Positions 413 to 22,326 of a stretch of DNA of 22,583 bases are shown here, in pieces. Source of the DNA: Candidatus Aenigmatarchaeota archaeon (GTDB taxonomy: Archaea > Aenigmatarchaeota > Aenigmatarchaeia > Aenigmatarchaeales > JACQIB01); contig JAZDNN010000008.1 in assembly GCA_043799675.1 (NCBI GenBank), positions 1 through 22,583 on the forward strand, given 5' to 3'. The translations under genes were made by a program, and so were the position numbers. The notes under the pieces were generated by a model. The model was not told where the DNA came from. It made no database searches and saw nothing but the letters and a program-made list of their open reading frames with translations. Numbering within the stretch: the first letter of the stretch is position 1; each line of letters starts with the position of its first letter.

Positions 413-687
413 TAGTTCCGCTTCCAATTCTGTTTGCCGAGGTCGCATAGAGGAATTGCGATAGCCTGGAACTATTGCCGTTTGCAATCAAAGCGAGCGG
501 GAATATGACCGGCGAGCTATTGCTCCGCAAGGGGCTCGAGAGTTCGAATAAGCGCGAAGCGCCTAAAGGCGTTTTGGCAGCCTGCGGCTGCAATGCTATG
601 AGAGTCTCTCCCTCGGCGCCATTTGATTTCGAAGAAATCATGGCGACGACTAGCGAACCTCAGTTCGCGTTGGTCGGCGCCAATCAG

Positions 688-6067: not shown

Positions 6068-6269
6068 CGCATTTTTCCCGGTAAATCAGGCAGTTTTCGG
6101 GATGCTCGTTGCAAACGTAGGTCATGATCAGCCCAAGAACGGTTTCCGAGTCCTTCAAAAACTTCCCGTAGTCGGATTTTCCGATCTTTCTGCTGCTGCC
6201 GATGGTCTCCTCTATCGCTTGGAAGTTCTTCAGGAACGTGCAGTCCTCGAACTGCTGGCACAACGGCAT
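6042..6269 (-). CDS. Small Cys-rich hypothetical protein (75 aa), possible metal-binding
   Basis: MPLCQQFEDCTF...YVCNEHPENCLIYREK has two Cys pairs; ATG 6269 lies ~22 nt from the TTTAAA box at 6291-6296. Confidence 0.55.
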   Translation of the reverse strand: MPLCQQFEDCTFLKNFQAIEETIGSSRKIGKSDYGKFLKDSETVLGLIMTYVCNEHPENCLIYREKCVRAVRRPS

Positions 6270-6290
6270 CCGCCCGATACACTTGGAACC

Positions 6291-6298
6291 TTTAAATA
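6291..6298. promoter_or_regulatory. TATA box of the r-protein operon, possibly bidirectional
   Basis: TTTAAATA is the only strong TATA-like sequence upstream of rpl3; its core is palindromic. Confidence 0.6.
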
Positions 6299-6412
6299 GT
6301 CTGTAGAGGCACTCTTGACGGAAAGTTTTCGTGCCAGCCACTATTGGCTTAACGGCCATGTTGGCGAACTATGTGTTCTCGGAACGGGACAGGGTAACAG
6401 AGGAATGGAAAA

Positions 6413-8552: not shown

Positions 8553-9254
8553 GGAAAGCGGATAATCTCAAGGGCACGCGGGCACGGCGGGCCGCGGTAC
8601 AGGTCGCCGTCGCACAGGTACGCCGGCAGATCGACCTATCCCAAACAGGACGGGGCCGCGCTGGTCAAGGACATTGTTCATGATACCGGCAGGGACGCGC
8701 CGCTTGCACTCGTACGGTTCCCGGACGGGAAGGAAAATCTGGTAATAGCTGCGGAGGGAACACACGTGGGACAGACGCTCTATTTCGGACTCGCGGATGC
8801 GCCGGCGAACAGCGGAAACGTGCTGCCTCTGTCGGTCGTGCCGAAGGGAGGCTCCGTGTTCGCGATAGAAATCACTCCCGGCGGGGGTCCGAAGCTGTGC
8901 TGCAGCGCCGGAACGCGGGCGCTGGTGGTGACGCAGGAAGCGAACAAAATCATACTTCAGATGCCGAGCAAGCAGTTCAGGGAACTGAACCCGGATTGCC
9001 GTGCGACCGTCGGAATACCGGCCGGCGGCGGAAGGGGCGATAAGCCTTACGTCAAGGCGGGACAGGTGTACTGGGCATCGTATGCGCGGAACAGGCTGTG
9101 GCCACGTTCAAGCGCAAGCAAGATGAACCCGGTCGACCACCCGTTCGGTGGACACACCAAGCCCGGAACGCCCAAGACCATCAGTACATGGGCGCCGCCA
9201 GGTGCGAAGGTCGGTAGCGTAGGCGCGAGGAGAAGCGGAAGGAGCAAGAAGTGA
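8550..9254 (+). CDS. rpl2: 50S ribosomal protein L2 (uL2)
   Basis: MGKRIISRARG...YRSPSHRY, DIVHDTGRDAPLA, MNPVDHPFGG motifs. Confidence 0.98.
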   Translation: MGKRIISRARGHGGPRYRSPSHRYAGRSTYPKQDGAALVKDIVHDTGRDAPLALVRFPDGKENLVIAAEGTHVGQTLYFGLADAPANSGNVLPLSVVPKGGSVFAIEITPGGGPKLCCSAGTRALVVTQEANKIILQMPSKQFRELNPDCRATVGIPAGGGRGDKPYVKAGQVYWASYARNRLWPRSSASKMNPVDHPFGGHTKPGTPKTISTWAPPGAKVGSVGARRSGRSKK

Positions 9255-9259
9255 TATAG

Positions 9260-9640
9260 ATGGTCAAAATATTCAGCTACAAGGGAAAGAGCATAGAGGA
9301 ACTGCAGAAGATGAGTCTCGAGGATTTTTCCAAGCTGCTCCCTTCGCGGCAGAGAAGGAGCCTCAGGAGAGGCATGACCCCGCTGGAGAAGAAGGTGCTT
9401 GAGAAGATCCGGACCAGCAAGAAGCCGGTAAGGACCCATGAGAGGGAAATGATAATCGTGCCCGAAATGGTCGGGAAGAAGATGAGCATCCATGCCGGGA
9501 AGGATTGGGTGGCTCTGGACATAACCGCCGAGATGCTGGGGCACAGGCTCGGAGAATTTGCGCTTACGAGGAAGAAGGTACAGCACAGCTCGCCGGGAGT
9601 GGGAGCGACCAGGAGCAGCAAGTTCCTGCCGCTGAAGTGA
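9260..9640 (+). CDS. rps19: 30S ribosomal protein S19 (uS19)
   Basis: [43 protein letters not shown]. Confidence 0.98.
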
Positions 9641-9649
9641 GATGATGAT

Positions 9650-9706
9650 ATGAAGTTGACAAATTCAACCAAGAGCAATTGGCCGGCAGAGCCGGCAGGT
9701 GCATGA
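9650..9706 (+). repeat. Intergenic double-hairpin element, copy 1 (S19-L22); mini-ORF MKLTNSTKSNWPAEPAGA
   Basis: ATGAA GTTGA-caaat-TCAAC CAA gagcaa TTG GCCGGC-aga-GCCGGC AGGTG CA TGA. Confidence 0.8.
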
Positions 9707-9708
9707 GA

Positions 9709-10116
9709 ATGGAATATGCGATGAAAACCACGAAGGAGATGGCAATCGCCAGCACAACGCTCAGGGCCAGCCCGAAGACGGTGCTGAAGATATGCAGGGC
9801 CCTCAACCGGAAGCAGTTCGCCGTTGCACAGGCGTTCACGGACAAGCTGGTGGCGCATGAGGTGAGCATGGACGGGAAGTTCCATGACAAGGCGGCGGAA
9901 GGGCTTCGACAGTTCCTCAGGGAAGTCGAGAACAACGCGAAACAGAAGAAGCTCGAACCGAAGGAAATGAAACTGATGATAAGCATGCACCAGGCGCCGA
10001 AGATGATGAGAGGAAGGAGACGGAGACGGCACGGGATGCTCATGAAGAACGCTCACGTCCAGGCGGTGCTCGTGCCCGTACAGAAAAAGGAGAAGAAAGA
10101 AACGAAGAAGGCATAA
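9709..10116 (+). CDS. rpl22: 50S ribosomal protein L22 (uL22), divergent
   Basis: LRASPKTVLKICRAL, LREVENNAKQK, NAHVQAVL; position between S19 and S3; alternative in-frame ATG at 9703. Confidence 0.93.
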   Translation: MEYAMKTTKEMAIASTTLRASPKTVLKICRALNRKQFAVAQAFTDKLVAHEVSMDGKFHDKAAEGLRQFLREVENNAKQKKLEPKEMKLMISMHQAPKMMRGRRRRRHGMLMKNAHVQAVLVPVQKKEKKETKKA

Positions 10117-10118
10117 TT

Positions 10119-10748
10119 ATGGTTGTTGAAAGAAAGTTCATCGGCGAGGCGATAAGGAAGAACAAGGTCCACGAGTACCTGGCAGAGGAGTTCTCGAAGG
10201 CCGGGTTCAGCCATGCAGAAATAGCAAGGACCCCCGTGGCGATGCGTGTTACAGTCTGGGTGCAGAAGCCCGGAATAGTCATCGGGCGCGGAGGGAAGAC
10301 GATTGATGCTCTGACCGAGACGCTCAAGACGAGGTTCGGCCTGGAGAACCCGCAGCTCGATGTCCAGGAAGTGCAGGAGCCCGACCTTGATGCCGCAATA
10401 GTCGCCAGGCAGATAGCGGCTGCCATTGAAAGGGGCCTCAACTACAAGAGGGTCGCGCAGCTCACGCTCCAAAGAGTGATGCAGGCGGGAGCCGCCGGAG
10501 TGGCGGTCAGGATAGGCGGAAAGCTCGGAGGGGAAGTCAGCAGGAGGGAAAAGTTCTCCGCTGGCTACCTGAAGTGGGCGGGAGAGCCGGCCGAGCAGCT
10601 CAGCAAGGGATATGCGACCGCGAGAGTGAAGCTCGGTAACATCGGGATACAGGTCAGGATACTCATAGAACAGCCGAAGGACCTGGTTTCAATGAGCAAA
10701 ATAATGGCGCAGCCGCAGCCCGAGCAGAAGACCGAGGAGACGAAATAA
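10119..10748 (+). CDS. rps3: 30S ribosomal protein S3 (uS3)
   Basis: KH motif KPGIVIGRGGKTI, PDLDAAIVARQIA, KLGNIGIQVRI. Confidence 0.98.
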   Translation: MVVERKFIGEAIRKNKVHEYLAEEFSKAGFSHAEIARTPVAMRVTVWVQKPGIVIGRGGKTIDALTETLKTRFGLENPQLDVQEVQEPDLDAAIVARQIAAAIERGLNYKRVAQLTLQRVMQAGAAGVAVRIGGKLGGEVSRREKFSAGYLKWAGEPAEQLSKGYATARVKLGNIGIQVRILIEQPKDLVSMSKIMAQPQPEQKTEETK

Positions 10749-10750
10749 TC

Positions 10751-11020
10751 ATGGCCATAATCAGGAAGAAGGCGATGAGGGAGATGGGCAGGGAAGACGC
10801 GAAAAAGAAAGTCGCGGAGCTCAGGCTCGAGCTCGCCAAGGACAGGGCGCAGGTCGCTGTCGGGGCGTCACCCGTGAACCCCGGAAAGATAAAGGAAACC
10901 AGGCGGGGGATAGCGCGGCTGCTCACGCTGGTGAAGTCGAAAGAGGAAGCGATGCTCAAGCAGGCATTGACAATCAAAGGAAACACAAAAACGAAGAAGG
11001 GGGTCGTCGGGGCTGGCTGA
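10751..11020 (+). CDS. rpl29: 50S ribosomal protein L29 (uL29) with basic C-terminal tail
   Basis: ELRLELAK...NPGKIKETRRGIARLLT. Confidence 0.95.
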   Translation: MAIIRKKAMREMGREDAKKKVAELRLELAKDRAQVAVGASPVNPGKIKETRRGIARLLTLVKSKEEAMLKQALTIKGNTKTKKGVVGAG

Positions 11021-11315
11021 GATCTGCAAGGTCTGCGGGTTCCCGAAGGAGTTGTGCATATGCGGGACACTGGCGAAGGAAGCGGCGAAGGTCAAGATAT
11101 ACACGGTCAAGAGGTCCTTCGGAAAGTCCGTGACCATCATAGAAGGGGTGTCGGAAGGGACCAAGGAACTGGCGAGCAAGCTGAAAACCAAGCTCGCGGC
11201 CGGGGGCACCATCAAGGAAGGACGAATAGAGATACAGGGCGAGCATGCCGCGAAAGTCAAGAAGCTGCTGCTGAACTCCGGGTTCAAGGAAGAGCAGATA
11301 GAGGTAGCGGGGTAA
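11013..11315 (+). CDS. sui1: Translation initiation factor aIF1 (SUI1), probable CTG start
   Basis: (M)AEICKVCGFPKELCICG Zn-knuckle-like N-terminus, FGKSVTIIEG, LKTKLAAGGT, IEIQGEH; no in-frame ATG/GTG/TTG between TGA 10968-10970 and the Cys motif. Confidence 0.92.
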   Translation: MAEICKVCGFPKELCICGTLAKEAAKVKIYTVKRSFGKSVTIIEGVSEGTKELASKLKTKLAAGGTIKEGRIEIQGEHAAKVKKLLLNSGFKEEQIEVAG

Positions 11316-11319
11316 TAAT

Positions 11320-11682
11320 ATGAGTCTAAGCAAAACGAAAAGGGCGAAGATGAAAGAGAAGAACATCGGTTTCTCCTCGGTGAGACCGCAGGAGACATGC
11401 ACCGATTCGAAGTGCCCGTGGCACGGCTCGCTGCCGGTAAGGGGACGGATGATAATCGGAACGGTCATGGCGGTGCGCGCACCGATGACGGCTACGGTCG
11501 AGTGGAACTACACGCGCTGGCTCCCGAAGTTCGAGCGGTTCGAGAGGAGACACAGTCACATCGTTGCGTACAGCCCGACCTGCATAGGGGCCAAGGAGGG
11601 CGACACGGTTAAGATAGCCGAGTGCAGGCCGCTCAGCAAGACCAAGAGCTTCGTGATAATCGAGAGGATGGGAAACAAATGA
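11320..11682 (+). CDS. rps17: 30S ribosomal protein S17 (uS17)
   Basis: CTDSKCPWHGSLPVRG, AECRPLSKTKSFV. Confidence 0.97.
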   Translation: MSLSKTKRAKMKEKNIGFSSVRPQETCTDSKCPWHGSLPVRGRMIIGTVMAVRAPMTATVEWNYTRWLPKFERFERRHSHIVAYSPTCIGAKEGDTVKIAECRPLSKTKSFVIIERMGNK

Positions 11683-12077
11683 AGTCAATATCGGCAAAGA
11701 TAACCGGGGCATTGCAGCCGGGAAGCAGCATGATATGCGCGGACAACAGCGGGGCGGACATGCTGGAGATGATATCGCTCAAGGGATACCACGGCGTCAA
11801 GAGGCGAAGGGCCACGGCAGGCATAGGCGACGTGATAGTCGCCGCGGTGAAGAAGGGCGACCCGAAGATGAGGCACGAGGTTGTGGAGGCGGTCATAATC
11901 AGGCAGAGAAGGGAGTTCCGGAGAAGGAACGGTCTGAGGGTCAGCTTCGAGGACAATGCGGCGGTGCTTGTCAACGAAAGGGGAGAACCGAGAGGGACGA
12001 GGCTCAAGGGCCCGCTCGCGAGGGAAGTGGTCGAGCGCTTCTCCGCCATCGGGAAGATAGCGGCAATAGTGGTGTAA
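11679..12077 (+). CDS. rpl14: 50S ribosomal protein L14 (uL14)
   Basis: CADNSGA, AVIIRQRRE, FEDNAAVLV; ATGA overlap with rps17. Confidence 0.98.
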   Translation: MKSISAKITGALQPGSSMICADNSGADMLEMISLKGYHGVKRRRATAGIGDVIVAAVKKGDPKMRHEVVEAVIIRQRREFRRRNGLRVSFEDNAAVLVNERGEPRGTRLKGPLAREVVERFSAIGKIAAIVV

Positions 12078-12437
12078 ATGAAAAGTGAAAATGCAGGAAA
12101 ACAACGGAAGGCAAGGGCGAACGCAGCCCTGCATGTGCGGCACAAGATGATGGCGGCCCACCTGTCCGAGCAGCTGCGCAGACAGGTGAGGAGAAGGAGC
12201 ATGCCGCTCAGGAAAGGGGACGAGGTGAGGGTGATGCGGGGCAGCTTCCGCGGAACCGTCGGAAAGGTGACGGAAGTCGACCTGAAGGAAATGAAGGCGT
12301 ACGTCGACAGCGTCAAGAGACGGAAGGTAAGCGGGACGGAGGTGCAGGTCGCGCTCGAACCCTCGAAACTCATAATCACGAATCCGGTGCTGGATGACCC
12401 CAGAAGGAAGCTCGTGCTGGAGAGGAAGAGGCAATGA
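12078..12437 (+). CDS. rpl24: 50S ribosomal protein L24 (uL24)
   Basis: KQRKARANAALH, LRKGDEVRVMRGSFRG (KOW), PSKLIIT. Confidence 0.97.
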   Translation: MKSENAGKQRKARANAALHVRHKMMAAHLSEQLRRQVRRRSMPLRKGDEVRVMRGSFRGTVGKVTEVDLKEMKAYVDSVKRRKVSGTEVQVALEPSKLIITNPVLDDPRRKLVLERKRQ

Positions 12438-12496
12438 TGCAAGTCAACGAAGTTGACCAAATGATGATTGGCTGCCCGAGGCAGCAGGAGCTATAA
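12434..12496 (+). repeat. Intergenic double-hairpin element, copy 2 (L24-S4e); mini-ORF MMQVNEVDQMMIGCPRQQEL
   Basis: ATG ATGCAA GTCAAC-gaa-GTTGAC CAA atgatga TTG GCTGCC-cga-GGCAGC AGGAG CTA TAA. Confidence 0.9.
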
Positions 12497-12498
12497 TC

Positions 12499-13191
12499 AT
12501 GGCAAGAATAGGCGGAAGGAGAAGGCTTGTAAGGGCGGAGACCACATGGGCTCCGAGCAGGAAGGCGATAAGGTTCGTAACGGCACCGCGCGGTGCACAT
12601 CCGATGGACAGGAGCATGCCGCTCCTGCTGGTGATTCGGGAGACGCTCGGGCTCGCAGACACCGCCCGCGAGGCGCGCCGTATAATCAAGGGGAAACAGG
12701 TCAAGGTCGACGGCAAGATTTGCAGGGACCATAAGCGCGGTCTCGGCCTGTTCGACACGATGGAAGTGGCGGGCAAGGCGTACAGGATGATCCCGTCACG
12801 CTCCGGGCTGCGAATGACCGAGATAGAAAAGCATGAGGCAAACTCGAAGGTCTGCCAGGTCACGACCAAGACGGCGGTGAGGGACGGGAAGATACAGATA
12901 GGGCTGCATGACGGGAGGAGCATACTTACAGAAAAAAGCGATGCTAAGCCGGGCGACAGCCTGCTGATAGAACTTCCGGGGCAGGCCGTGAAGGAAAAGC
13001 TGCCGCTCGAGGAAGGCGCGATATCTCTCATAACCTACGGTGCCAACGCGGGAAAGCTCGCACGGATACGGAAGATAGAACGCGGCCTGTACCCGAGGGC
13101 GTGGCTGCATGTCGATAACCAGACGTTCGAGGCCCCGCTCGCGGCGGTGATGCCGGTGGGCAAGGAGAAAGCGGTGATAAAAGTTGCATGA
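12499..13191 (+). CDS. rps4e: 30S ribosomal protein S4e (eS4)
   Basis: PRGAH...SMPLLLVIRE, VKVDGK, QIGLHDGRSI, GANAGK. Confidence 0.97.
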   Translation: MARIGGRRRLVRAETTWAPSRKAIRFVTAPRGAHPMDRSMPLLLVIRETLGLADTAREARRIIKGKQVKVDGKICRDHKRGLGLFDTMEVAGKAYRMIPSRSGLRMTEIEKHEANSKVCQVTTKTAVRDGKIQIGLHDGRSILTEKSDAKPGDSLLIELPGQAVKEKLPLEEGAISLITYGANAGKLARIRKIERGLYPRAWLHVDNQTFEAPLAAVMPVGKEKAVIKVA

Positions 13192-13271
13192 ACATCAGGC
13201 ATTGCAGTCTTCAGCTGCCGACAGAGGACACGAGACATTCCTGCCTTCGGCAGGCAATAGAGGAAATATAA
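13188..13271 (+). other. Spacer S4e-L5 with bridging mini-ORF (MNIRHCSLQLPTEDTRHSCLRQAIEEI) and hairpins
   Basis: ATGA overlap with the S4e stop, TAATG overlap with the L5 start; CCTGCC-ttc-GGCAGG hairpin at 13240-13254 just before the GAGG SD. Confidence 0.6.
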
Positions 13272-13768
13272 TGAGACAAATCAGGGTCGAGAAGGTCGTT
13301 CTCAACATCGGTGTAGGTGAGGCAGGGGAAAGGCTGGAGAAGGCGAAGAAGGTGCTCGAGACGGTGTCCAACGGAAGGAAGGTCATAGTCACCAAGGCGC
13401 ACAACAGGACGACGTTCGGCGCCGCGAAGGGCAGGCCGCTTGGAGTGGCCGTCACGCTGCGAGGAAAAGAGGCGCTCGCATTCCTGAAGAAGGCGTTCGA
13501 GGCGATAGACATGAAGCTGCCTGCGCGCGTGTTCGACAGGCAGGGGGACTTTTCGTTCGGAGTGAAGGAGCACATAGGGCTGCCGGGAACGAAGTATGAT
13601 CCTGAGATAGGAATATGGGGCATGGACGTCGCGGTGCGGCTGGCAAGAAGGGGCTACAGGGTGTCCAAGAAGAGGATATCCCACCGCGTCGGCATGAGCC
13701 ACCGCATCACTCCCGAGGAAGCGAGGGAGTGGACGGTAAGAAACCTGGACGTGAAGGTGGAAGAATGA
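13271..13768 (+). CDS. rpl5: 50S ribosomal protein L5 (uL5)
   Basis: [42 protein letters not shown]. Confidence 0.98.
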
Positions 13769-13923
13769 AGCCGATAAAAAAGGACAGGAAGTACGGCAAG
13801 GGGACATATCTCTGCAGGCGCTGCGGGAGATCCGGAGGGGTAATCAGGAAATACGGGCTGATGTACTGCCGCCAGTGCTTCCGTGAAGTGGCCAAGAACG
13901 TCGGCTTCAAGAAATACTCATAG
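13765..13923 (+). CDS. rps14: 30S ribosomal protein S14 (uS14, Zn-binding type)
   Basis: CRRCG...[19 protein letters not shown] overlap with rpl5. Confidence 0.97.
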
Positions 13924-13933
13924 GTGTGATGAC

Positions 13934-13993
13934 ATGAAAATCAGCTTCGTTGATGAAAGAAAAATTGGCTGCCAGAAGCAGCAGGTGCTATAA
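13934..13993 (+). repeat. Intergenic double-hairpin element, copy 3 (S14-S8); mini-ORF MKISFVDERKIGCQKQQVL
   Basis: ATGAAA ATCAGC-ttc-GTTGAT GAA agaaaaa TTG GCTGC-cagaa-GCAGC AGGTG CTA TAA. Confidence 0.88.
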
Positions 13994-13994
13994 T

Positions 13995-14381
13995 ATGAGA
14001 CATGACTTACTAAGCGACGCGTTGTCAGCGATACAGAACGGTGACAGGGTCGGCGGCAAGGAAGCGGTCAGCCCGGTATCCAACATGGTGAAGGATGTGA
14101 TGCAGGTGCTTCAGAAGCACAAGTACATCGGGAACTTCGAAATGGTGGACGACGGAAGGGGCGGAAGGTTCAGGGTAAGCCTCTTAGGCGCAATCAACCG
14201 CTGCGGTGCAATCAGACCCCGTTTCTCCATCAAGAAGGAGGAATGGGAGAAATGGGAGCGAAGATACCTGCCGGCCGTCGGGTTCGGCCTGCTCATAGTC
14301 AGCACCAGCAAGGGAGTGATGACGCACGACGATGCCAAGAAGGAAGGGGTGGGGGGAAAGCTGCTGGCTTTCGTTTATTGA
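13995..14381 (+). CDS. rps8: 30S ribosomal protein S8 (uS8)
   Basis: DLLSDALSAIQN, DDGRGG, INRCGAIRPRF, IVSTSKGVMTH. Confidence 0.98.
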   Translation: MRHDLLSDALSAIQNGDRVGGKEAVSPVSNMVKDVMQVLQKHKYIGNFEMVDDGRGGRFRVSLLGAINRCGAIRPRFSIKKEEWEKWERRYLPAVGFGLLIVSTSKGVMTHDDAKKEGVGGKLLAFVY

Positions 14382-14390
14382 GGGATAAAG

Positions 14391-14924
14391 ATGGAAAAAA
14401 CACTGAGCATACCTGCCGGCGTTCATGTCGATATCAAAGGGATGCACGTGACGGTGAAGGGACCGAAAGGGCACCTGCAGAAGGACTTCGCCAGCCCGGA
14501 GTTCGGGGGTCTGGTGAAGATGGAGAATGCCGCCGACAAGGTAAGGATATCGACCGAAGAGACAAAACGAAAATACAAGTCGGAGGTCGGGACCATAGTG
14601 GCGTGCGTAAACAACATGATGCAGGGAGTGACGGCGCCGTGGAAGTACAAGCTCAAGATAGTGTACATGCACTTTCCGGTCACAGTAAAGATGCAGGGCA
14701 GGGAAGTTATGATAAGCAACTTCCTCGGAGAGAAGGCCCCGAGAAAGGCGGAGATAATAGGCGACACAAAGGTCGAGATAGCCGGCGACGAAATAACCGT
14801 TACCGGCATAAATCTGGAAGAGGCGGGGCAGACGGCGGCAAACCTTGAGAGGGCGACCAGGATACTCGCGCGCGACAGGCGCGTGTTCATGGACGGAATA
14901 TTCATCACGGAGAAACCGAAGTGA
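14391..14924 (+). CDS. rpl6: 50S ribosomal protein L6 (uL6)
   Basis: VTVKGPKG, YMHFPVTV, NFLGEKAPR, DRRVFMDGIFI. Confidence 0.98.
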   Translation: MEKTLSIPAGVHVDIKGMHVTVKGPKGHLQKDFASPEFGGLVKMENAADKVRISTEETKRKYKSEVGTIVACVNNMMQGVTAPWKYKLKIVYMHFPVTVKMQGREVMISNFLGEKAPRKAEIIGDTKVEIAGDEITVTGINLEEAGQTAANLERATRILARDRRVFMDGIFITEKPK

Positions 14925-14932
14925 GAAATGAT

Positions 14933-14992
14933 ATGCAAGTCAACTTCGTTGACCAAATGGTGATTGGCTGCCCGAGGCAGCAGGTGCTATAA
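14933..14992 (+). repeat. Intergenic double-hairpin element, copy 4 (L6-L32e); mini-ORF MQVNFVDQMVIGCPRQQVL
   Basis: ATGCAA GTCAAC-ttc-GTTGAC CAA atggtga TTG GCTGCC-cga-GGCAGC AGGTG CTA TAA; 55/60 nt identical to copy 2. Confidence 0.9.
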
Positions 14993-15427
14993 ATGAATCC
15001 AAAGAAAAAACCCGCGTTCCTGAGACAGGAGTGGTTCAGGCACGGGAACATCAGAAAGAAGTGGCTGAAGTGGAGGATGCCGCGCGGCAACAAGAGCAAG
15101 CTCAGGCGGCACTTCATCGGAAAGGGATTCATACCGAGCGCCGGATACGGCGCCCCCGTGGAGACGCGGATGCTCCATCCGAGCGGTCTCGGGGAAGTCA
15201 TGGTCAACAATCCGCAAGAGCTGGCAGGCATCGATGCCGGAACGCAGGCGGTCAGGATCGCCGGGGCGGTGGGCGGAATGAAAAGAATGCTGATACAGAA
15301 GAAGGCCGAAGAACTCAAGCTCAGGGTGCTCAACCCGAGGAAAATCGAACTCAGGGTGAAGACCAAGGAGAAGAAGGAAACGAAAGGCGAGAACAAGCCT
15401 GAGGGTCCAAAGGAGATTAAAAAATGA
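14993..15427 (+). CDS. rpl32e: 50S ribosomal protein L32e (eL32)
   Basis: KPAFLRQEW, WRMPRGNKSKLR, GYGAP...LHPSG, RVLNP. Confidence 0.97.
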   Translation: MNPKKKPAFLRQEWFRHGNIRKKWLKWRMPRGNKSKLRRHFIGKGFIPSAGYGAPVETRMLHPSGLGEVMVNNPQELAGIDAGTQAVRIAGAVGGMKRMLIQKKAEELKLRVLNPRKIELRVKTKEKKETKGENKPEGPKEIKK

Positions 15428-15861
15428 GCAAGCAAAGCAGGACAGCCAATTCGCAAAGGAGAATCGCGTCAAAAATACTGAAGGCCGGTTCCAGCCGAGT
15501 ATGGATGGACCCGAACCAGGCGGCCAAGATATCCCAGGCCATCACCCGGACGGACATACGAAGGCTGATAGACAAGGGAATCATACGCGAGCTTCCCGAA
15601 AGGAAGCCCACGCCCGAGGCCGGTGCAAGAAAGCAGGATATCGGCAGCAGGAAGGGGGCGCGCGGTGCCAGGCTCCGCGGCGGAAAGAAGGAGCCGTGGC
15701 TGAACATAATCAGGCCGCAGCGACAAATGCTCAACGAGCTGAAACCGAGCCTGAAACCGATGGCGTACAGGAAGCTGTACCGGCTGGTCAAGGGCGGGGC
15801 GTTCAGGAGCAGGACGCACTTGAAGAGCTACGTGGAGGAGAAGAAGCTGCTCAATAAGTGA
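15424..15861 (+). CDS. rpl19e: 50S ribosomal protein L19e (eL19)
   Basis: QRRIASKILKAG..RVWMDP, AITRTDIRRLI, GSRKGARGAR, YRKLYRLVKGG. Confidence 0.97.
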   Translation: MSKQSRTANSQRRIASKILKAGSSRVWMDPNQAAKISQAITRTDIRRLIDKGIIRELPERKPTPEAGARKQDIGSRKGARGARLRGGKKEPWLNIIRPQRQMLNELKPSLKPMAYRKLYRLVKGGAFRSRTHLKSYVEEKKLLNK

Positions 15862-15866
15862 TTTAC

Positions 15867-15926
15867 ATGCAAGTTCATGAAATGAACCAAACGATGATTG
15901 GCTGCCAGAAGCAGCAGGAGCTATGA
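15867..15926 (+). repeat. Intergenic double-hairpin element, copy 5 (L19e-L18); mini-ORF MQVHEMNQTMIGCQKQQEL
   Basis: ATGCAA GTTCAT-gaa-ATGAAC CAA acgatga TTG GCTGC-cagaa-GCAGC AGGAG CTA TGA. Confidence 0.9.
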
Positions 15927-15928
15927 GT

Positions 15929-16510
15929 ATGGCAAAAACAGCGCTCTATACGATGCCCCACCGGAGACGGAGGGAGCAGAAGACCGATTACAGGATAAGG
16001 CTTGCCCTTGTCAGGAGCGGCAGCGTGAGGGCGGTCATACGGAAGAGCGGGAGCCACATGACCGTGCAGTTCGTGAAATGGGAGAAGGACGGTGATAGAA
16101 CATTGCTGACCGTAAGCAGCTCGCATCTGGCGAAGTTCGGATGGATGGCCGGCACCGGCAACGTTCCTGCAGCCTACCTGACCGGCCTGCTGGCCGCGAA
16201 GCTTGCGCGCACCGTGGATGTCAAGGACGCGATAATCGATTTCGGGATGCAAACGAACACGAAGGGCAGCAGGCTTTATGCCGCGGTCAAGGGCCTTGTC
16301 GACGGCGGCATCAATGTCCCTCACGATGCGGAGAGGCTGCCGGGTGAGGACAGGATAAGCGGGAAGCACATCGCGGCCTGGTCAGGTTCCGCGAAAAATT
16401 CGTTCACGTCTTATAAGGTCCGGGCTGCCGATTTGCAGAAGCACTTCGCCGAGGTCAAGGCGAAGATAGAGGCGGGAAGCAAAATTGCCGCCAAAGGCGG
16501 GAGCGTATGA
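15929..16510 (+). CDS. rpl18: 50S ribosomal protein L18 (uL18)
   Basis: RRRREQKTDYRIRLAL, NVPAAYLTGLL, KGLVDGGINVPH; alternative in-frame ATG at 15923. Confidence 0.97.
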   Translation: MAKTALYTMPHRRRREQKTDYRIRLALVRSGSVRAVIRKSGSHMTVQFVKWEKDGDRTLLTVSSSHLAKFGWMAGTGNVPAAYLTGLLAAKLARTVDVKDAIIDFGMQTNTKGSRLYAAVKGLVDGGINVPHDAERLPGEDRISGKHIAAWSGSAKNSFTSYKVRAADLQKHFAEVKAKIEAGSKIAAKGGSV

Positions 16511-17406
16511 TTATGGGAGAACAGGAATCGCACAAGCGGAGCCTTCCGAGAGAGCCGACCGCGCAGGAAACGGCGCAGAAACAGTCGATAAGCGAGACCG
16601 ATAACATCCTGCCGGCTGAGGTGGTGGAAGCCGCGAAGAAGGCGGAAGAAGCGGTAGTATTGACAAGCAAGCCCGGCATCCAGATGGGCGAGTGGAACCC
16701 GCGGACGCAGCTCGGGAAGGACGTGCTTGCCGGGAAGATAACCAGCATCGACCAGCTGTTCGAGGACGGGGTGAAGATAACCGAGCCGGGGATAGTTGAC
16801 GCACTGCTGCCCGGGCTCGCGCATGAAATAATTCTCATCGGAGGAAGCGGTGGAAAGGGCGGAGGGGTCAGGAGAACACCGTCAAGAAGGACATCAAGGA
16901 TGCACAAGAGCGGAAGACGATACAAGGTCTCGGCGATGGTGGTGGTCGGCAACGGCAACGGTTACGTCGGCATGGGTTATGCGCGCGGCATGCCGGGAAG
17001 ACACAAGGAAATAATAGAAAAGGCGCTGGTGAAGGCGAAGCTCAATCTCATACCGGTCATGCGCGGCTGCGGCAGCTGGGAATGCAGGGACGCCAGTCCT
17101 CATAGCATACCGTTCGCAGTCACCGGGAAGTCCGGCTCGGTGAAGATAACGTTCATGCCGGCGCCGCGCGGACTCGGTCTTGTGGTTTCGGATGAAGTGA
17201 AGAAGGTGCTCAGGCTGGCGGGGGTCGAAGACGTCTGGGCGAAGAGCAGGGGCCAGACCAGCAGCAGGGTCAACACCATTCATGCCGTATTCGACGCGTT
17301 CGGCAAGCTCAACAGGCTGAGGCTTTCCGAGGAATCCAAGCAGTCCGTCGGACTGAGGGTCGGAAGGGTCGGCCTGGGCTCGCCGCTGGTGAAGGGTGGT
17401 CAGTGA
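16507..17406 (+). CDS. rps5: 30S ribosomal protein S5 (uS5) with N-terminal extension
   Basis: WNPRTQLGK, RMHKSGRR, VVVGNGNGYVGMG, RGCGSWEC, PAPRGLGLV. Confidence 0.97.
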   Translation: MIMGEQESHKRSLPREPTAQETAQKQSISETDNILPAEVVEAAKKAEEAVVLTSKPGIQMGEWNPRTQLGKDVLAGKITSIDQLFEDGVKITEPGIVDALLPGLAHEIILIGGSGGKGGGVRRTPSRRTSRMHKSGRRYKVSAMVVVGNGNGYVGMGYARGMPGRHKEIIEKALVKAKLNLIPVMRGCGSWECRDASPHSIPFAVTGKSGSVKITFMPAPRGLGLVVSDEVKKVLRLAGVEDVWAKSRGQTSSRVNTIHAVFDAFGKLNRLRLSEESKQSVGLRVGRVGLGSPLVKGGQ

Positions 17407-17834
17407 TGCTCGCAGTGATAAGATTGAGGGGTACGGTCAACATGCGGAAGGACAAAATTGAGACGCTCAGGCTGATGAGGCTGAACAGGAAGATGCATTG
17501 CGTGCTCATACCGGAGAACAAATCATACAAGGGAATGATACAGATGGCGAAGGACTACATCACATGGGGCACGATAAGCGATGCACTTCTCGAGAAACTG
17601 ATTGCCAAGAGGGGAAGGAAGACAGGGGACGTCAGGCTGAATGCGGAGGAAGTCAAGCAGATAATCAATGAGCTCAAGAACGGGGCATCTGCCAATGAGC
17701 TGGGAATAAAGCCGGTGTTCAGGCTGAACCCGCCGAGCGGCGGTTTCAAGCACGGCATCAAGCACGCCTATCCGAAAGGGGAGCTGGGCAACCGGAAGGA
17801 AAAGATCAACGAGCTGCTGGAGAAGATGATTTAG
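17406..17834 (+). CDS. rpl30: 50S ribosomal protein L30 (uL30)
   Basis: AVIRLRG, KDYITWG, FRLNPPSGG, INELLEKMI; GTG at 17403 is an alternative start. Confidence 0.97.
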   Translation: MLAVIRLRGTVNMRKDKIETLRLMRLNRKMHCVLIPENKSYKGMIQMAKDYITWGTISDALLEKLIAKRGRKTGDVRLNAEEVKQIINELKNGASANELGIKPVFRLNPPSGGFKHGIKHAYPKGELGNRKEKINELLEKMI

Positions 17835-18299
17835 ATGGCAACGCTAGGCACGCTCTGTTTCATCGAGAAGGAAGGCAAATACCTGATGCAGCTGAAGAAC
17901 GACAATAAGTTCGGCGGCGGAAGGTGGAACGCGCCCGGCGGAAAGACGAAGGAAAACGAGAGCGTGGAGCAGGGGGTCGTGAGGGAAATCCTGGAAGAGA
18001 CCGGTTTGAAGATAAGAAACGCGAAGAAGCGGGCGGTGCTGAACTTCTTCAACGGGGACGAGTTCGCGTGGGCGGTGCATGTTTTTGCCACAAAGGATTT
18101 CGAGGGAAAGGTCAAGTCCAGCGAAGAAGGGGAACTGAAGTGGATGGACAAGGGCAGCCTTCCGTATGCGCAGATGTGGGAGGACGACAGGCACTGGGTG
18201 CCGCTCGTGACGGAAGGGAAGAACTTTGAGGCAAACTTCCACTTCAAGGAAAACTTCAAGGACATATTCAAGTGGTCGGTCAAACTGGTGAGCATATGA
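17835..18299 (+). CDS. Nudix hydrolase, MTH1/NUDT1-like (8-oxo-dGTPase type)
   Basis: Complete Nudix box G-KTKEN-E-SVEQGVV-REILEETGL; FGGGRWNAPGGK and MWEDDRHWVP resemble MTH1-family signatures; abuts rpl30 and overlaps rpl15 (ATGA). Confidence 0.9.
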   Translation: MATLGTLCFIEKEGKYLMQLKNDNKFGGGRWNAPGGKTKENESVEQGVVREILEETGLKIRNAKKRAVLNFFNGDEFAWAVHVFATKDFEGKVKSSEEGELKWMDKGSLPYAQMWEDDRHWVPLVTEGKNFEANFHFKENFKDIFKWSVKLVSI

Positions 18300-18736
18300 C
18301 AGCAAGATTCCGCAAGAAAGTAAGAAGGATGAGGGGGACCCACACGCACGGCTGGGGCGAGAAGAAGAAGCACCGAGGGGCCGGAAGCAGGGCGGGCAGG
18401 GGAAGGAGCAACTGGCTGTATTCAAAGAGGAGCTATACTTACGCTTACGAGCCCGAGAGGCTCGGCAAGAAGGGATTCACGTTCAAGCCGAAGAAGGAGG
18501 ACATACGCAGCATAAACATAAGGGACATCGAAAGCATGGCCATAAGCAGGAAGAGCAGGGACATTGATGTGGCTTCCCTCGGATTCAACAGGGTGCTCGG
18601 GAACGGGCAGCTCACGATGCCCATCAACGTCAAGGCGCCGCGGATATCGCCCAAGGCAAGGGCGAAGATAGAAGGCGCAGGCGGCAAAGCGGAAGAGACG
18701 GCGCCGAAGAATGAGGGGAAGAAGGAGGGGAAGTAA
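18296..18736 (+). CDS. rpl15: 50S ribosomal protein L15 (uL15)
   Basis: RGTHTHGWGEKKKHRGAGSRAGRG, GKKGF, VLGNG, KIEGAGG. Confidence 0.97.
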   Translation: MTARFRKKVRRMRGTHTHGWGEKKKHRGAGSRAGRGRSNWLYSKRSYTYAYEPERLGKKGFTFKPKKEDIRSINIRDIESMAISRKSRDIDVASLGFNRVLGNGQLTMPINVKAPRISPKARAKIEGAGGKAEETAPKNEGKKEGK

Positions 18737-20394
18737 TGGACGACGTTCCCGTCGCCCAGCCTGCAGGGCCGTCAGGCCAGACACCATCGGCAGAACCGTC
18801 CCATTCGTTATTGCATCCGCAGCACGAGGAGGAACACAAGCCGAAGAAGAGTTTCAAGTTCGATCTTGCGAGCATAGGGACGAGATTCCCGTCGGTGAAG
18901 AAGCCCGAGCTCAAACTGCCGTTCAGGCAGAAACTGGTGTGGACGGGCGCCATACTGGTGCTGTTCTACGTCCTCGGAAGCATCAACGCGTGGGGGATAG
19001 ACGCGAACGCGGTGGCCAGGTTCGATTTTCTTGAAATAATTTTCGGAAGCAAGTTCGGTTCCATAATTACGCTCGGTATCGGACCGATAGTCACCGCCTC
19101 CATCATTCTGCAGCTGCTGGTCGGGGCCAAGATACTGAACTGGGACACCAAGACGTCGGAAGGGAAGGCCAAGTTCATGGGGACGCAGAAACTTCTTGCG
19201 GTCGCGTTCAGCCTCTTTGAGGCAATCGCCTATGTCGTGGCCGGTGCGGTGCCGCCTGCGGCGGGCGGAGGGGCCCCGTTGATGATGGCCGTCATACTTC
19301 AGCTGGCGGCAGGAGGTATACTGATAATTTTCATGGATGAGGTCGTGAGCAAGTGGGGAATAGGCTCCGGAGTCAGCCTGTTCATCGCGGCCGGAGTGGC
19401 AAAGACCATAATCGTCCGCGTGTTCAACCCGCTCACCGCCGCCGGGGCGTGGCCCAGCATCGAGGAGCCGGCTTCCGGCCTGATACCGGGCATGATAGCC
19501 TACATCGCGGCCGGGCAGCCCACTCAGGCGCTCATCAGCCTGTTCCCGCTCCTGGCAACGGGTGCGGTGTTCGTCATAGTACTTTTCGCGCAGGCAATGA
19601 AAATCGAGATACCGATGGCAATAACCATGCCCTACGGCCGTTTCGGTTCCAGGCGCTGGCCGCTGCGTTTCATCTACACCAGCAACATTCCGGTCATCCT
19701 TGTCGCTGCGGTATTGGCCAATGTGCAGGTGGTGGTAAGGACGATGGCGAACCAGGGGATGACCTGGCTCGGGACATACGACCAGCAGGGCTCGCCGCTG
19801 AGCGGGCTCGCCCTTTTCCTGCAAGCGCCGAGCAGCACGAGCCTGATGGTAACATCGGTCATTGCCGGCCTGTTCGCCCTCGGAATAGGGCTGCTGGTGG
19901 CACTCAGGTTCAAGAAGTGGGTGCTGAGGAGCATAGTTGTCAGTTCGATAGCCGGACTTTTCTTAGGTTCGCTCCTGCTCGGGACGTTCGGCCTGCCTCA
20001 GATTACATCGCTGGACGCGTCCAGGGTCGCGGTCCATATGCTGATAATGGTCGTCGGCAGCGTGATTTTCGGAATGTTCTGGGTCCAGACGGCCGGAATG
20101 GACGTCCACAGCGTGGCGGAGCAGTTCAAGTCCAGCTTCCTCAGTATACCCGGCTTCAGACGCGACCCGCGGATAATCGAGTCGGTGCTGCAGCGCTACA
20201 TACCCGCGGTCACGGTGCTGGGCAGCGCGTTCGTGGGATTCCTGGCGGGCTTTGCGGACCTCACCAACGCGATAGGTTCCGGGACAGGAATACTGCTGAC
20301 GGTCATGATAGTGTACCAGCTGTACGAGCAGATAGGGCAGCAGCACGGCTCGGAGCTGCCGCAATGGCTGCAGAAATGGATGGGAGTGGCATGA
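18736..20394 (+). CDS. secY: Preprotein translocase subunit SecY (Sec61alpha), 552 aa, elongated
   Basis: TLGIGPIVTASIILQLL, KWGIGSGVSLFIAAGV, YTSNIPVIL, IPGFRRDPR, GSGTGILLTV. Confidence 0.98.
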   Translation: MDDVPVAQPAGPSGQTPSAEPSHSLLHPQHEEEHKPKKSFKFDLASIGTRFPSVKKPELKLPFRQKLVWTGAILVLFYVLGSINAWGIDANAVARFDFLEIIFGSKFGSIITLGIGPIVTASIILQLLVGAKILNWDTKTSEGKAKFMGTQKLLAVAFSLFEAIAYVVAGAVPPAAGGGAPLMMAVILQLAAGGILIIFMDEVVSKWGIGSGVSLFIAAGVAKTIIVRVFNPLTAAGAWPSIEEPASGLIPGMIAYIAAGQPTQALISLFPLLATGAVFVIVLFAQAMKIEIPMAITMPYGRFGSRRWPLRFIYTSNIPVILVAAVLANVQVVVRTMANQGMTWLGTYDQQGSPLSGLALFLQAPSSTSLMVTSVIAGLFALGIGLLVALRFKKWVLRSIVVSSIAGLFLGSLLLGTFGLPQITSLDASRVAVHMLIMVVGSVIFGMFWVQTAGMDVHSVAEQFKSSFLSIPGFRRDPRIIESVLQRYIPAVTVLGSAFVGFLAGFADLTNAIGSGTGILLTVMIVYQLYEQIGQQHGSELPQWLQKWMGVA

Positions 20395-20479
20395 AACGTT
20401 TTGCCCGTCACCCTCTTGTGAACGGAGTGATATCACATTTTGCCCGTCATGCTGTTTGTAGCGGGGGAATATGAAATGA
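20391..20479 (+). other. Spacer secY-adk with bridging mini-ORF (MKRFARHPLVNGVISHFARHAVCSGGI), 12-bp direct repeat and palindrome
   Basis: ORF 20391-20474 (ATGA overlap with secY); TTTTGCCCGTCA at 20399-20410 and 20438-20449; GTGATATCAC palindrome at 20427-20436. Confidence 0.55.
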
Positions 20480-21132
20480 GGCTTCTTATTTTCGGACCGC
20501 AGGGCAGCGGCAAGGGGACGTATGCCAGCAGGCTGTCGCCGATTCTGGGGATACCGCACATAAGCACAGGCGACCTGTTCAGAGCCGAAATAAAGGCGGG
20601 AACCACCCTCGGAAAACATGTCGAGGGAATAATAAACGCCGGCAACCTCGTGCCGGACGGCACGGTGTTTGACGTGATACGGAAGAGGCTGGCGCAACAT
20701 GATGCCAAGAACGGCTTCATATTCGACGGATTCCCGCGAAACCAAAAACAGGCCGAAGAGCTTGACAGGATGACAAAGATAGATGCGGTCATCAACCTGG
20801 TGGTCCCCGACGAGATACTGATAAAACGGCTGAGCGCAAGGGTCCAGTGCAGGGCCGCCGGGCACATCTACAACCTGCTGACCCTCAAGCCAAAGGTCGG
20901 GGGCAAGTGCGACACCGACGGGAGCGAGCTTTACCAGAGGGACGATGACAAGCCGGATGCCATAAAAAAGAGGCTGAAGCTCTACCGTGAGCAGAGCGCC
21001 CCGCTGCTCGAACACTACAGGAAGAAGGGGCTGGTGATAGACTCGGCGGTCAACGATCTGATGACGCCGCCGGAGGTCGTGGTCGCAAGAATCCTCGCTG
21101 CTTTAAAAGGGTCGGAGGGAAAGAGGCGCTGA
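20476..21132 (+). CDS. adk: Adenylate kinase (bacterial-type, LID-containing)
   Basis: P-loop GPQGSGKGT, HISTGDLFR, FDGFPR, LID region and QRDDD. Confidence 0.97.
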   Translation: MRLLIFGPQGSGKGTYASRLSPILGIPHISTGDLFRAEIKAGTTLGKHVEGIINAGNLVPDGTVFDVIRKRLAQHDAKNGFIFDGFPRNQKQAEELDRMTKIDAVINLVVPDEILIKRLSARVQCRAAGHIYNLLTLKPKVGGKCDTDGSELYQRDDDKPDAIKKRLKLYREQSAPLLEHYRKKGLVIDSAVNDLMTPPEVVVARILAALKGSEGKRR

Positions 21133-21136
21133 GAAC

Positions 21137-21604
21137 ATGTTCGAGTTCATAACCGATGCCGTGGGAGCGTTTTTCAGTCCGCTGCTGGTATTGCCATCAA
21201 TAGTCGTGGTCGCCGGCATGGCGGTCTTCCTTACGGTCGTCAGCACGCTCTGCTACAGGTTCCTGGTCGACCAGAACAAGGTGAGGGAGATAAAGCAGAA
21301 GCTGAAGGAACTGGGGAAGCAGTCAAAGAAGACCGAGCAGCCGGAGGAAGCGAAGGCCGCGATGAGCGAGATGCTCAAACTGCAGAATTCGCAGATGAAG
21401 ATGAACATGAAGCCGATGATAGTCACCCTGCTGATAGTCGCGATGATACTGCCGTGGATGTCGGCAACGTTCAAGGGCGAAGTCGCCGTCCTGCCGATAA
21501 GCCTGCCGTACTTCGGCGCGGATTTCGGCTGGCTGATGTGGTACTTCGTGGTCAGCATACCGGTCACGCAGGTGGCAAGGAAACTGATGGGGGTCGAATC
21601 CTGA
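21137..21604 (+). CDS. DUF106 / EMC3-TMCO1 (Oxa1 superfamily) membrane protein
   Basis: TM, coiled coil, TM, TM layout with MKPMIVT and GWLMWYF motifs; conserved position after secY-adk. Confidence 0.9.
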   Translation: MFEFITDAVGAFFSPLLVLPSIVVVAGMAVFLTVVSTLCYRFLVDQNKVREIKQKLKELGKQSKKTEQPEEAKAAMSEMLKLQNSQMKMNMKPMIVTLLIVAMILPWMSATFKGEVAVLPISLPYFGADFGWLMWYFVVSIPVTQVARKLMGVES

Positions 21605-21629
21605 ACGGATTCATAACGAAGGTGTTCAT

Positions 21630-21914
21630 ATGAGAAGACAATTGCGCTCAAACTCGGTGAAGAAGATGAAGGTCGTCACACCGGGAGGAAGGACGGTCAT
21701 GCATTTCAAGAAGGGGAGGCACAACCATCAGCAATGCGCCAACTGCGGTATCAAGCTCAACAGGGTCACTTTGGACCCCCATCAAATCAGGTCCCTTGCA
21801 AAGAGCTCGAGAAGGCCGGAGAGGCGCTTCCCCGAGCTCTGCGTGAAGTGCAGCCGCGAGATGCTGAAGGTGAAGATGCTTGGCGGCACACTGGAGAAGA
21901 AGGTGTTTGGATGA
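21630..21914 (+). CDS. rpl34e: 50S ribosomal protein L34e (eL34)
   Basis: VTPGGRTVMHF, CANCG, SSRRPER...LCVKC. Confidence 0.95.
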   Translation: MRRQLRSNSVKKMKVVTPGGRTVMHFKKGRHNHQQCANCGIKLNRVTLDPHQIRSLAKSSRRPERRFPELCVKCSREMLKVKMLGGTLEKKVFG

Positions 21915-21976
21915 ATGGCATAAGCAGCGTAGCTGCCAAGAACAGTCTTGGCCGGCGAAGCCGGCAGGTGTTATGA
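21911..21976 (+). repeat. Intergenic double-hairpin element, copy 6 (L34e-L14e); mini-ORF MNGISSVAAKNSLGRRSRQVL
   Basis: ATG aatggcat AA GCAGC-gta-GCTGC CAA gaacagtc TTG GCCGGC-gaa-GCCGGC AGGTG TTA TGA; ATGA overlaps at both ends. Confidence 0.8.
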
Positions 21977-21978
21977 AC

Positions 21979-22326
21979 ATGGCTGTGATTGAACCCGGAA
22001 GGATAGTGATGAAGATAGCGGGCCGCGAGGGCGGGCGCTATGCAGTGGTGCTGGAAATACCGAAGGACAGCTTTGTCCTGATAACCGGCCCGAAAAGCAT
22101 AACCGGAATAAAGCGGAGGAAATGCTCAATCTTCCATCTGGAGCCCACGGAGCACATGCTCCAGGCAGGGACGGACGAACAACTCGAGAGGGCGTGGAAA
22201 AGCTCCGGTCTCATGGAAAAGCTCGGGATAATCGTGCCCCAGAAAAGGAAGCAGGCGACCGAAAACAAGCCCAGACCGAAGGCGGTCAGGAAGGCAAGGG
22301 CCAAGCCCGAGAAAAGACAGAAGTGA
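21979..22326 (+). CDS. rpl14e: 50S ribosomal protein L14e (eL14) with basic C-terminal tail
   Basis: IEPGRIVMKIAGREGGRYAVV, FVLITGPKSITGIKRRKCSIFHLEPT; alternative ATG at 21973. Confidence 0.95.
   Translation: MAVIEPGRIVMKIAGREGGRYAVVLEIPKDSFVLITGPKSITGIKRRKCSIFHLEPTEHMLQAGTDEQLERAWKSSGLMEKLGIIVPQKRKQATENKPRPKAVRKARAKPEKRQK

Follow-up and report, generated by a model that had tools for sequence, protein, structure and literature searches.

A hairpin-rich repeat of a Candidatus Aenigmatarchaeota archaeon is found on gene start codons and as introns in tRNA T-loops

Spacers of a ribosomal protein operon and tRNA introns form one repeat family

A 22,583 nt stretch of DNA from a Candidatus Aenigmatarchaeota archaeon (assembly GCA_043799675.1, contig JAZDNN010000008.1; hereafter the window) carries a ribosomal protein operon in which six gene junctions contain similar, hairpin-forming spacers. 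These spacers, termed w1 to w6 in their order along the window, and a set of introns in the T-loops of tRNA genes are members of one repeat family. The account that we consider fairly likely is that the spacers are copies of a small, mobile-element-like repeat of around 55-60 nt, which is lineage-specific, hairpin-rich and non-coding, and which is an intron where it lies in a tRNA gene and a relay micro-open reading frame (micro-ORF) where it lies on a start codon. The window constitutes contig C43 of a 45-contig, 748,753 bp assembly, which is 83% complete and has a GC content of 54%; contigs of this genome (G000) are denoted by C numbers below.

A first-pass annotation of the window had proposed that the spacers originated as a cis-regulatory module of one ribosomal protein superoperon, with a dispersed element resembling repetitive extragenic palindromic (REP) sequences or miniature inverted-repeat transposable elements (MITEs) as the alternative. 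All six spacers could be read from the sequence at their reported positions and with their reported hairpin arms, and their homology was borne out by an nhmmer search built from the six (E values of 1e-13 to 4e-19 for each) and by a covariance model, R1, constructed from 19 copies outside tRNA genes (E values of 2e-14 to 6e-18); repeat grouping joined four of the six at 65-100% identity. Using nhmmer, R1 and a second covariance model built from the 11 tRNA introns only (R2), at least 31 copies of the family were found on 14 contigs of the genome. R1 gave 37 matches with E<=1, around 20 of which were strong and lay outside tRNA genes, whilst some were mirror matches of palindromes. These approximately 20 copies, referred to here as mRNA copies, sit directly on gene start codons. 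Seven of the 20 precede Pfam-verified ribosomal protein genes (L22, S4e, S8, L32e, L18, L35Ae and L31e); other downstream genes encode prefoldin, an eRF1-like protein, Topo VI-B, a HerA-like ATPase, a nucleoside-phosphorylase-like protein and a nucleotidyltransferase, and several have no Pfam match. The common orientation noted for the six spacers extends to the whole genome, as all 31 copies are in the sense direction; two sense copies point outward in a single divergent promoter region. The copies preceding unrelated genes, and the 11 within tRNA genes, lend no support to an origin as a module of one superoperon. The large number of dispersed, similar, non-coding copies, the junctions lacking a copy in relatives and the differences between strains are instead those of a REP- or MITE-like element.

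Eleven members of the family are bulge-helix-bulge (BHB) introns in tRNA T-loops, all at position 59/60. Nine weaker R1 matches lie in T-loops, with ggTTC(G/A)A before them and ATCC...CCA after them; following in silico deletion of the element, ARAGORN identified a tRNA in all nine cases (Ala, Leu, Asn, Gln, Ala, Gly, Gly, Ile and Pro), each of which carries a second intron near the anticodon. A reciprocal search with the intron-only model revealed two further T-loop copies. A BHB with the T-stem as its outer helix is available for all 11, this stem being 5 bp long in ten; the central helix, TTC(G/A):TGAG, has all four pairs in nine copies and three in the other two, the bulge on either side is AA|T in most cases, and the inner helix is 4-6 bp long, mostly beyond one 1x1 mismatch. 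Deletion restores a canonical (T/G)TC(G/A)AAT T-loop and a 5 bp T-stem in all 11, one copy having GTCCGAAT; the DNA of an intron-less T-arm is GGTTCGAATCC. These copies thus combine the attributes of archaeal BHB introns, namely the motif itself, a restored RNA and a genome encoding EndA and RtcB, which presumably remove them by way of their proper BHB flanks. An extra copy lies near the anticodon arm, outside the T-loop, of a tRNA gene whose anticodon loop contains CAT (C16:18413-18461, minus strand).

The relationship between the two types of copy is also evident when searching from the introns. R2 and an intron-only hidden Markov model recover mRNA copies colinearly over the full length of the model, and nhmmer concurs; matches of the intron-only models include C16:9532-9593 (8.7e-6), C10:57608-57668 (2.4e-5), w6 (1.4e-4) and C16:40637 (6.7e-3). 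The top pairing of an intron with an mRNA copy is identical at 39 of 49 positions, with a score of 59 compared to 22 +/- 3.8 (maximum 36) in 1000 shuffles, hence around ten standard deviations above them.

Copies are absent from related genera and vary between strains

The corresponding junctions of five related genera within the same family (G001-G005) contain no copy of the repeat, and are mostly short, for example ctgaagTGATAACTatgg and GAAGTGACatggcaaag. One of these genomes (G002, locus L025) has unrelated inserts at the L24-S4e, S14-S8 and L6-L32e junctions: a spacer of around 170 nt that contains an imperfect, GC-rich palindrome, around 800 nt of inserted sequence including an ORF, and a spacer of around 80 nt. 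Across 40 related genomes, R1 matched two weakly, one of the matches falling between a TATA-like box and an ATG, and R2 matched two marginally.

Recovery of the elements from independent data had been suggested as a check on the assembly. Contigs 90-99% alike from four sediment metagenome runs carry them, and hence they are not an assembly artefact. The same contigs reveal differences between strains. Three runs have a 62 nt piece similar to w2 between L22 and S3, a junction that in the window consists of just ataatt; at the start of S17, these three runs have 63 letters in place of four, which we infer to be another copy, and none is found there in the window. The w4 copy has many small indels in two runs. 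Furthermore, in a metagenome contig that is 95.6% identical to the window, the L24-S4e junction is occupied by a w5-type copy, 98.6% identical to w5 including its borders, which suggests that copies re-insert or undergo gene conversion with one another. A pattern scan of the metagenomes returned five loci, none of which spans the filled L22-S3 or S17 sites. At one metagenome contig end from a more distant relative (L069), an L19e-like end and a copy of the element are followed not by L18 but by a homologue of a gene near position 35,000 of C16; either the repeat was the site of a rearrangement or the contig end is chimeric.

Copies on start codons mostly lack a splicing motif and carry putative translation signals

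The BHB was sought at the homologous register in 14 of the 20 mRNA copies; C11, C10b, C4, C6c, C13 and C16:40637 were left out, having no clear 5' ATG or main start. Neither the window spacers nor the other mRNA copies among these 14 have a BHB or a relaxed form of it: the central helix averages 1.86 of four pairs, where around 1.5 would be expected by chance, and is complete in only two copies, an outer helix of at least 2 bp is found in none, and the inner helices range from 0 to 3 bp. An unconstrained scan for BHB motifs, covering 616 register pairs per mRNA copy, always found some complete central helix, at registers as inconsistent as chance predicts, and was not used. Judging by these sequences, the mRNA copies are probably not spliced.

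The mRNA copies instead have features that are rare or absent in the tRNA copies. A Shine-Dalgarno (SD)-like core, GGTG or GGAG, is present in 14 of the 20 mRNA copies but only two of the 11 tRNA copies. The statement that the second hairpin always directly abuts the SD sequence is correct for these 14 mRNA copies, but does not apply to the rest of the 20. An in-frame stop codon is found 0-4 nt 5' of the next ATG in 16 of the 20 mRNA copies, as against none of seven tRNA copies; stops were counted within 14 nt of the end of the match, 13 being identified by script and three read by hand. Two more mRNA copies continue in frame into the main ORF. All of TAA, TGA and TAG are used, in two registers, hence the stops cannot all have been inherited from one master copy. 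The sequence of the encoded peptide is not conserved.

The sequence 'AT' is found on both sides of the element, in the form GAAT...GAGAAT in tRNA copies and NATG...NATG in mRNA copies. An mRNA copy could therefore arise through landing on a start codon, with NNAT joined to the G... of the element making a new upstream ATG. As it has no BHB, such a copy would most likely stay in the mRNA. A ribosome ending the upstream cistron might then restart at the ATG of the element, read the micro-ORF of 18-21 codons through the hairpins, terminate 0-4 nt from the real start and re-initiate there, with the SD-like AGGTG or AGGAG 6-8 nt upstream potentially helping. Coupling needs overlaps or very short gaps between genes, which the micro-ORF would supply at both ends; to go by the sequence, we infer that translational coupling is preserved through the micro-ORF acting as a bridge. 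A secondary role of the element in translation, through its micro-ORF and SD-like sequence, seems likely.

Hairpin structure

Both of the hairpins from which the element was originally described are present in the RNAfold minimum-energy fold of all six window spacers, whilst a third, middle hairpin (CCAA...TTGG) means that the layout is one of three hairpins rather than two; in w6, a 4 bp stem closes all three. It had also been claimed that the letters of the stems vary whilst their pairing is kept, and covariation across 19 copies agrees with this. Paired cells make up 87.4% of the total, compared to 73.1% in shuffles, and 41 cells have double changes, compared to 13.3, neither value being reached in any of 500 shuffles; slid control registers have just 9.5-49% of cells paired. 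All six pairs of hairpin 1 exhibit compensatory changes. Folding energies are unremarkable by comparison with shuffles (z scores of -0.03 to -3.3, not significant for four of the six copies, with only one copy having no shuffle that folds equally well), hence the support for the structure rests on covariation. Hairpin 1 of w2 (12443-12457, GTCAAC GAA GTTGAC) and that of w4 (14939-14953, GTCAAC TTC GTTGAC) are exact reverse complements of each other, and hairpin loops across the family occur as complementary pairs (GAA/TTC and AAA/TTT), which suggests inversion of hairpins at the DNA level. Searching Rfam with the whole window at E<=1 found no family matching any copy, and just one unrelated weak match. 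A home-made scan of the genome for double hairpins produced so much noise, at 646 candidates, that its results were set aside.

Machinery for splicing and mobility

EndA is encoded by two adjacent single-unit genes (C10:51469-52295, minus strand), rather than as one multi-unit protein. The rtcB gene is itself broken by 31 nt (C16:57868-57898; around 1369-1399 of locus L048) within the stretch encoding H-W-G-Y-G-F-P-I-G-G. This intron has the direct repeat TATGGGT at its flanks; its central helix measures 4 bp and its inner helix 8 bp, there is no outer helix, and it is also recovered by the BHB rule used for the tRNA copies.

A reverse transcriptase gene (C16:60332-61408, or L048:3833-4909, minus strand) is located 1.4 kb from rtcB. 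A pair of 93 nt repeats (L048:5385-5477 and 6243-6335), 82% identical, is found at the ends of ORFs upstream of it, and at 14 of their 17 mismatches one of the two repeats has an A, as in diversity-generating retroelements; the reverse transcriptase looks like part of such an element, and was therefore dropped as evidence for retro-mobility of the repeat. There are also 15 LAGLIDADG_3 matches at around 12 loci (e.g. C10:53588-53842, C6:12867-13088 and C16:59314-59592), three of which lie in very long ORFs and are probably inteins; the rest are free-standing, some being beside tRNA genes called by ARAGORN. Spread between T-loops could be envisaged if the conserved T-arm suffered homing-type breaks that were then repaired using a gene with the intron. 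We remain evenly balanced, leaning slightly towards doubt, as to whether the repeat is a currently active non-autonomous element, each insertion of which would create a new BHB tRNA intron in a T-loop or a new relay micro-cistron on a start codon. It may be driven by the free-standing LAGLIDADG endonucleases, through double-strand breaks for which another copy serves in repair, or else spread through RNA by means of EndA, RtcB and the resident reverse transcriptase.

Alternative explanations

The mRNA copies might be relaxed BHB introns that EndA and RtcB remove, restoring a tight ancestral junction such as TGATGG and leaving the micro-ORF and SD-like sequence irrelevant. The family is indeed homologous to real introns, removing the element and one flanking ATG gives junctions like those of the relatives, and the rtcB intron is an example within an mRNA that has no outer helix. 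Nevertheless, this appears unlikely: the central helix is incomplete in 12 of the 14 copies tested and hardly better paired than by chance, the outer helix is missing and the inner helices are short, whilst the best motifs of the free scan fall at inconsistent, chance-like registers. SD-like cores and in-frame stops gained in the mRNA copies alone are, moreover, hard to explain if the element leaves before translation. A dedicated structured regulatory RNA of ribosomal protein operons, acting as a binding site for a repressor or chaperone or as a translation gate, would account for the seven copies preceding ribosomal protein genes, six of them within one operon, and for the covarying hairpins and uniform sense orientation. 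We regard it as quite improbable given that the element has neither the conserved operon position nor the described family that would be expected of a ribosomal protein autoregulatory leader: it is missing from the junctions of five related genera and has no match in Rfam. Copies also precede the genes for prefoldin, the eRF1-like and HerA-like proteins, Topo VI-B and the nucleotidyltransferase, as well as unannotated genes, and occur in tRNA T-loops; folding energies are not exceptional, and stem sequences differ both among copies and among strains at one site, hence there is no conserved sequence for a specific binder. The label of an operon-specific regulator is wrong; a mobile repeat specific to the lineage, serving as an intron within tRNA genes and as a relay micro-cistron where it sits on start codons, is the better description of the spacers.

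Short, stable GC hairpins between cistrons are typical of bacterial REP and BIME sequences, and the copies are in sense within transcribed regions, so they might act as stabilisers or processing sites whose hairpins block exonucleases or are cut, segmenting the polycistronic mRNA. However, their position is fixed at start codons, not past stop codons or at 3' ends; as the explanation of the family this is very improbable, although it is compatible with a mobile repeat bearing a relay micro-ORF and would not replace it. There is hardly any likelihood that the micro-ORFs encode a functional peptide family of around 19 residues. The frame is open from the ATG in 16 of 20 copies, and four copies of subfamily A share an IGC(P/Q)(R/K)QQ(E/V)L tail, yet one-base indels shift w1, C17, C16b and C10a to another register encoding unrelated peptides whilst nucleotides and hairpins are kept, the compensatory changes in stems alter residues (VNEVD, VHEMN, ISFVD), and the same sequence serves as a tRNA intron.

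A number of observations weigh against the interpretation of the spacers as unspliced copies of a mobile repeat with a role in translation. The two mRNA copies with a complete central helix are both in the window, being w5 and w6, and the splicing of the rtcB mRNA intron without an outer helix leaves room for relaxed splicing of some mRNA copies. No RNA run was found to contain positions 9200-16600 of the window. The copies share ancestry, hence their SD-like sequences and stops may in part have been inherited from a few master copies rather than representing 14-16 independent events. As the 3' end of the 16S rRNA is absent from the assembly, sequences were judged 'SD-like' from their core and not by the anti-SD of the host. 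With regard to mobility, none of the three transposase families searched for (Y1_Tnp, the TnpB zinc ribbon and DDE_3; other families were not searched) has a match in the 83% complete assembly. Alignments reveal no terminal inverted repeats: the element begins ATGAGC... and ends ...GCTATGAG, the only inverted match between the ends being AGC/GCT, whilst ATGAG is a direct repeat. The flanking 'AT' duplication could belong to the element. Finally, the counts of G-T (9) and A-C (11) in the stems are balanced and uninformative as to whether a sense-strand RNA or a DNA palindrome is maintained, and the complementary GAA and TTC loops of hairpin 1 mean that conservation of the stems may reflect the dynamics of a DNA palindrome, not an RNA function.

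Relation to known systems

REP and BIME sequences, ERIC, Correia, RUP and BOX repeats, Rickettsia palindromic elements and archaeal MITEs are all short, structured, non-autonomous and dispersed. The family described here resembles these bacterial repeats and archaeal MITEs in being present or absent according to strain and in being tolerated inside transcription units. It differs in its exact position on start codons, in the sense orientation of 31 out of 31 copies, in doubling as a spliceable tRNA intron, and in having neither terminal inverted repeats nor a partner transposase among the three families searched. BHB introns are also found in archaeal mRNAs, as in cbf5 of Crenarchaeota. Such introns, including that of rtcB in this genome, are likewise tRNA-type intervening sequences in the transcript of a protein-coding gene, in a host with EndA and RtcB; however, the cbf5 and rtcB introns break a reading frame and need splicing, whereas the mRNA copies are intercistronic, have no BHB motif and carry their own start, stop and SD-like sequence.

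In Thermoproteales, according to two accounts drawing on Fujishima et al. 2010, near-identical transposing BHB introns recur in tRNA genes of different isotypes, having spread by an unknown route (PMC4090602; bioRxiv 10.64898/2026.10.13.758758). The recurrence across isotypes, the constraint of the BHB and the lineage-specific expansion are shared with the introns reported here; yet those of Thermoproteales are, in these accounts, known among tRNA genes only, whereas the present family also has around 20 start codon sites without a BHB, and its 11 tRNA copies are all at position 59/60. The latter source, a 2026 preprint on Asgard tRNA introns, describes the route by which introns arrive as still open (bioRxiv 10.64898/2026.10.13.758758). 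Coupling through termination and reinitiation needs gene overlaps or very short distances, as stated in two further papers (PMC6728339, PMC10666635). Both ends of the micro-ORFs have ATGA or TGATG overlaps or very short gaps resembling those of the coupled gene pairs treated there, and relatives use such junctions; a relay ORF without a conserved product, which would carry the ribosome over an inserted element, sets the present case apart from those pairs as they are described. A literature search, outside which lay the subscription journals, found no published tRNA-intron-like repeat on start codons.

One small genome thus harbours a single family in both states: spliceable introns in T-loops, and insertions at sites other than tRNA genes. 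Intron gain is an open question, and this family may show how archaeal tRNA introns spread; were it a currently active mobile element, it would be a living example of their arrival. The differences between strains make it a system of donors and recipients that can be traced in populations and tested in vitro. It might also show how a compact operon with overlapping stops and starts can tolerate insertions, by means of a relay micro-ORF. There are consequences for annotation too: spacers of this type should not be called regulatory leaders, and tRNA finders miss most of the tRNA genes of this genome. ARAGORN calls only 17 across the whole of it, several of which are odd.

Copies within the window

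All copies in the window lie on the forward strand. Each of the six spacers is an open micro-ORF of 18-21 codons with its stop 0-2 nt 5' of the next ATG, and each has AGGTG or AGGAG 6-8 nt 5' of that ATG; the ATG of the micro-ORF overlaps the upstream stop in w2 and w6, and lies 5-10 nt past it in the other four. The flanking genes were assigned using Pfam, the score of L22 being slightly below its cut-off. The first copy, w1 (9650-9706; R1 E 2.4e-14), separates S19 and L22; its 18 codons run from the ATG at 9650 to a TGA at 9704-9706, with the L22 ATG at 9709, and its arms, GTTGA/TCAAC and GCCGGC/GCCGGC, are followed by AGGTG. Between L24 and S4e is w2 (12437-12496; E 1.2e-17), which shares its ATG with the L24 stop (TGATG) and has 19 codons ending in TAA, 2 nt from the S4e ATG at 12499; its SD-like sequence is AGGAG. 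At the S14-S8 junction, w3 (13934-13993; E 6e-16) has 19 codons and a TAA 1 nt from the S8 ATG at 13995, with a first hairpin, ATCAGC/GTTGAT, that includes one G-T pair. The L6-L32e copy, w4 (14933-14992; E 6.4e-18), also has 19 codons, with its TAA immediately against the L32e ATG at 14993, whilst w5 (15867-15926; E 9e-17), between L19e and L18, has 19 codons, a first hairpin of GTTCAT/ATGAAC and a TGA 2 nt from the L18 ATG at 15929. The last, w6 (21911-21976; E 4e-14), lies between L34e and a gene for a KOW-motif protein, sharing its ATG with the L34e stop (ATGA) and having 21 codons that end in a TGA 2 nt from the ATG at 21979.

A seventh copy in the window (546-605, or 549-604 when read as an intron) interrupts the T-loop of a tRNA-Ala(GGC) gene at position 59/60 as a 56 nt BHB intron; its register is TTCG[AA|T]...TGAG[AG|T], and its E values are 0.0017 with R1 and 1.8e-17 with R2. 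Its host gene (437-621) encodes the CCA end and is split by one or more additional introns close to the anticodon. ARAGORN found no tRNA gene in the intact window, and a search of Rfam with positions 400-650 at E<=10 did not match the interrupted tRNA-Ala.

Some further features of the operon were seen close to the spacers. Extra tiny ORFs, ATG ATG ATA TGA at 9642-9653 and ATG ACA TGA at 13929-13937, lie between the upstream stop and the element, and as their TGA overlaps the ATG of the element as ATGA, they form a chain of micro-ORFs, which could be due to chance. The S4e-L5 spacer (13192-13270), 79 nt long, has a hairpin of its own, CCTGCC TTC GGCAGG, then a GAGGA SD sequence, and might be related to the family but decayed; contigs from two of the metagenome runs are without 36 nt of it (13223-13258).

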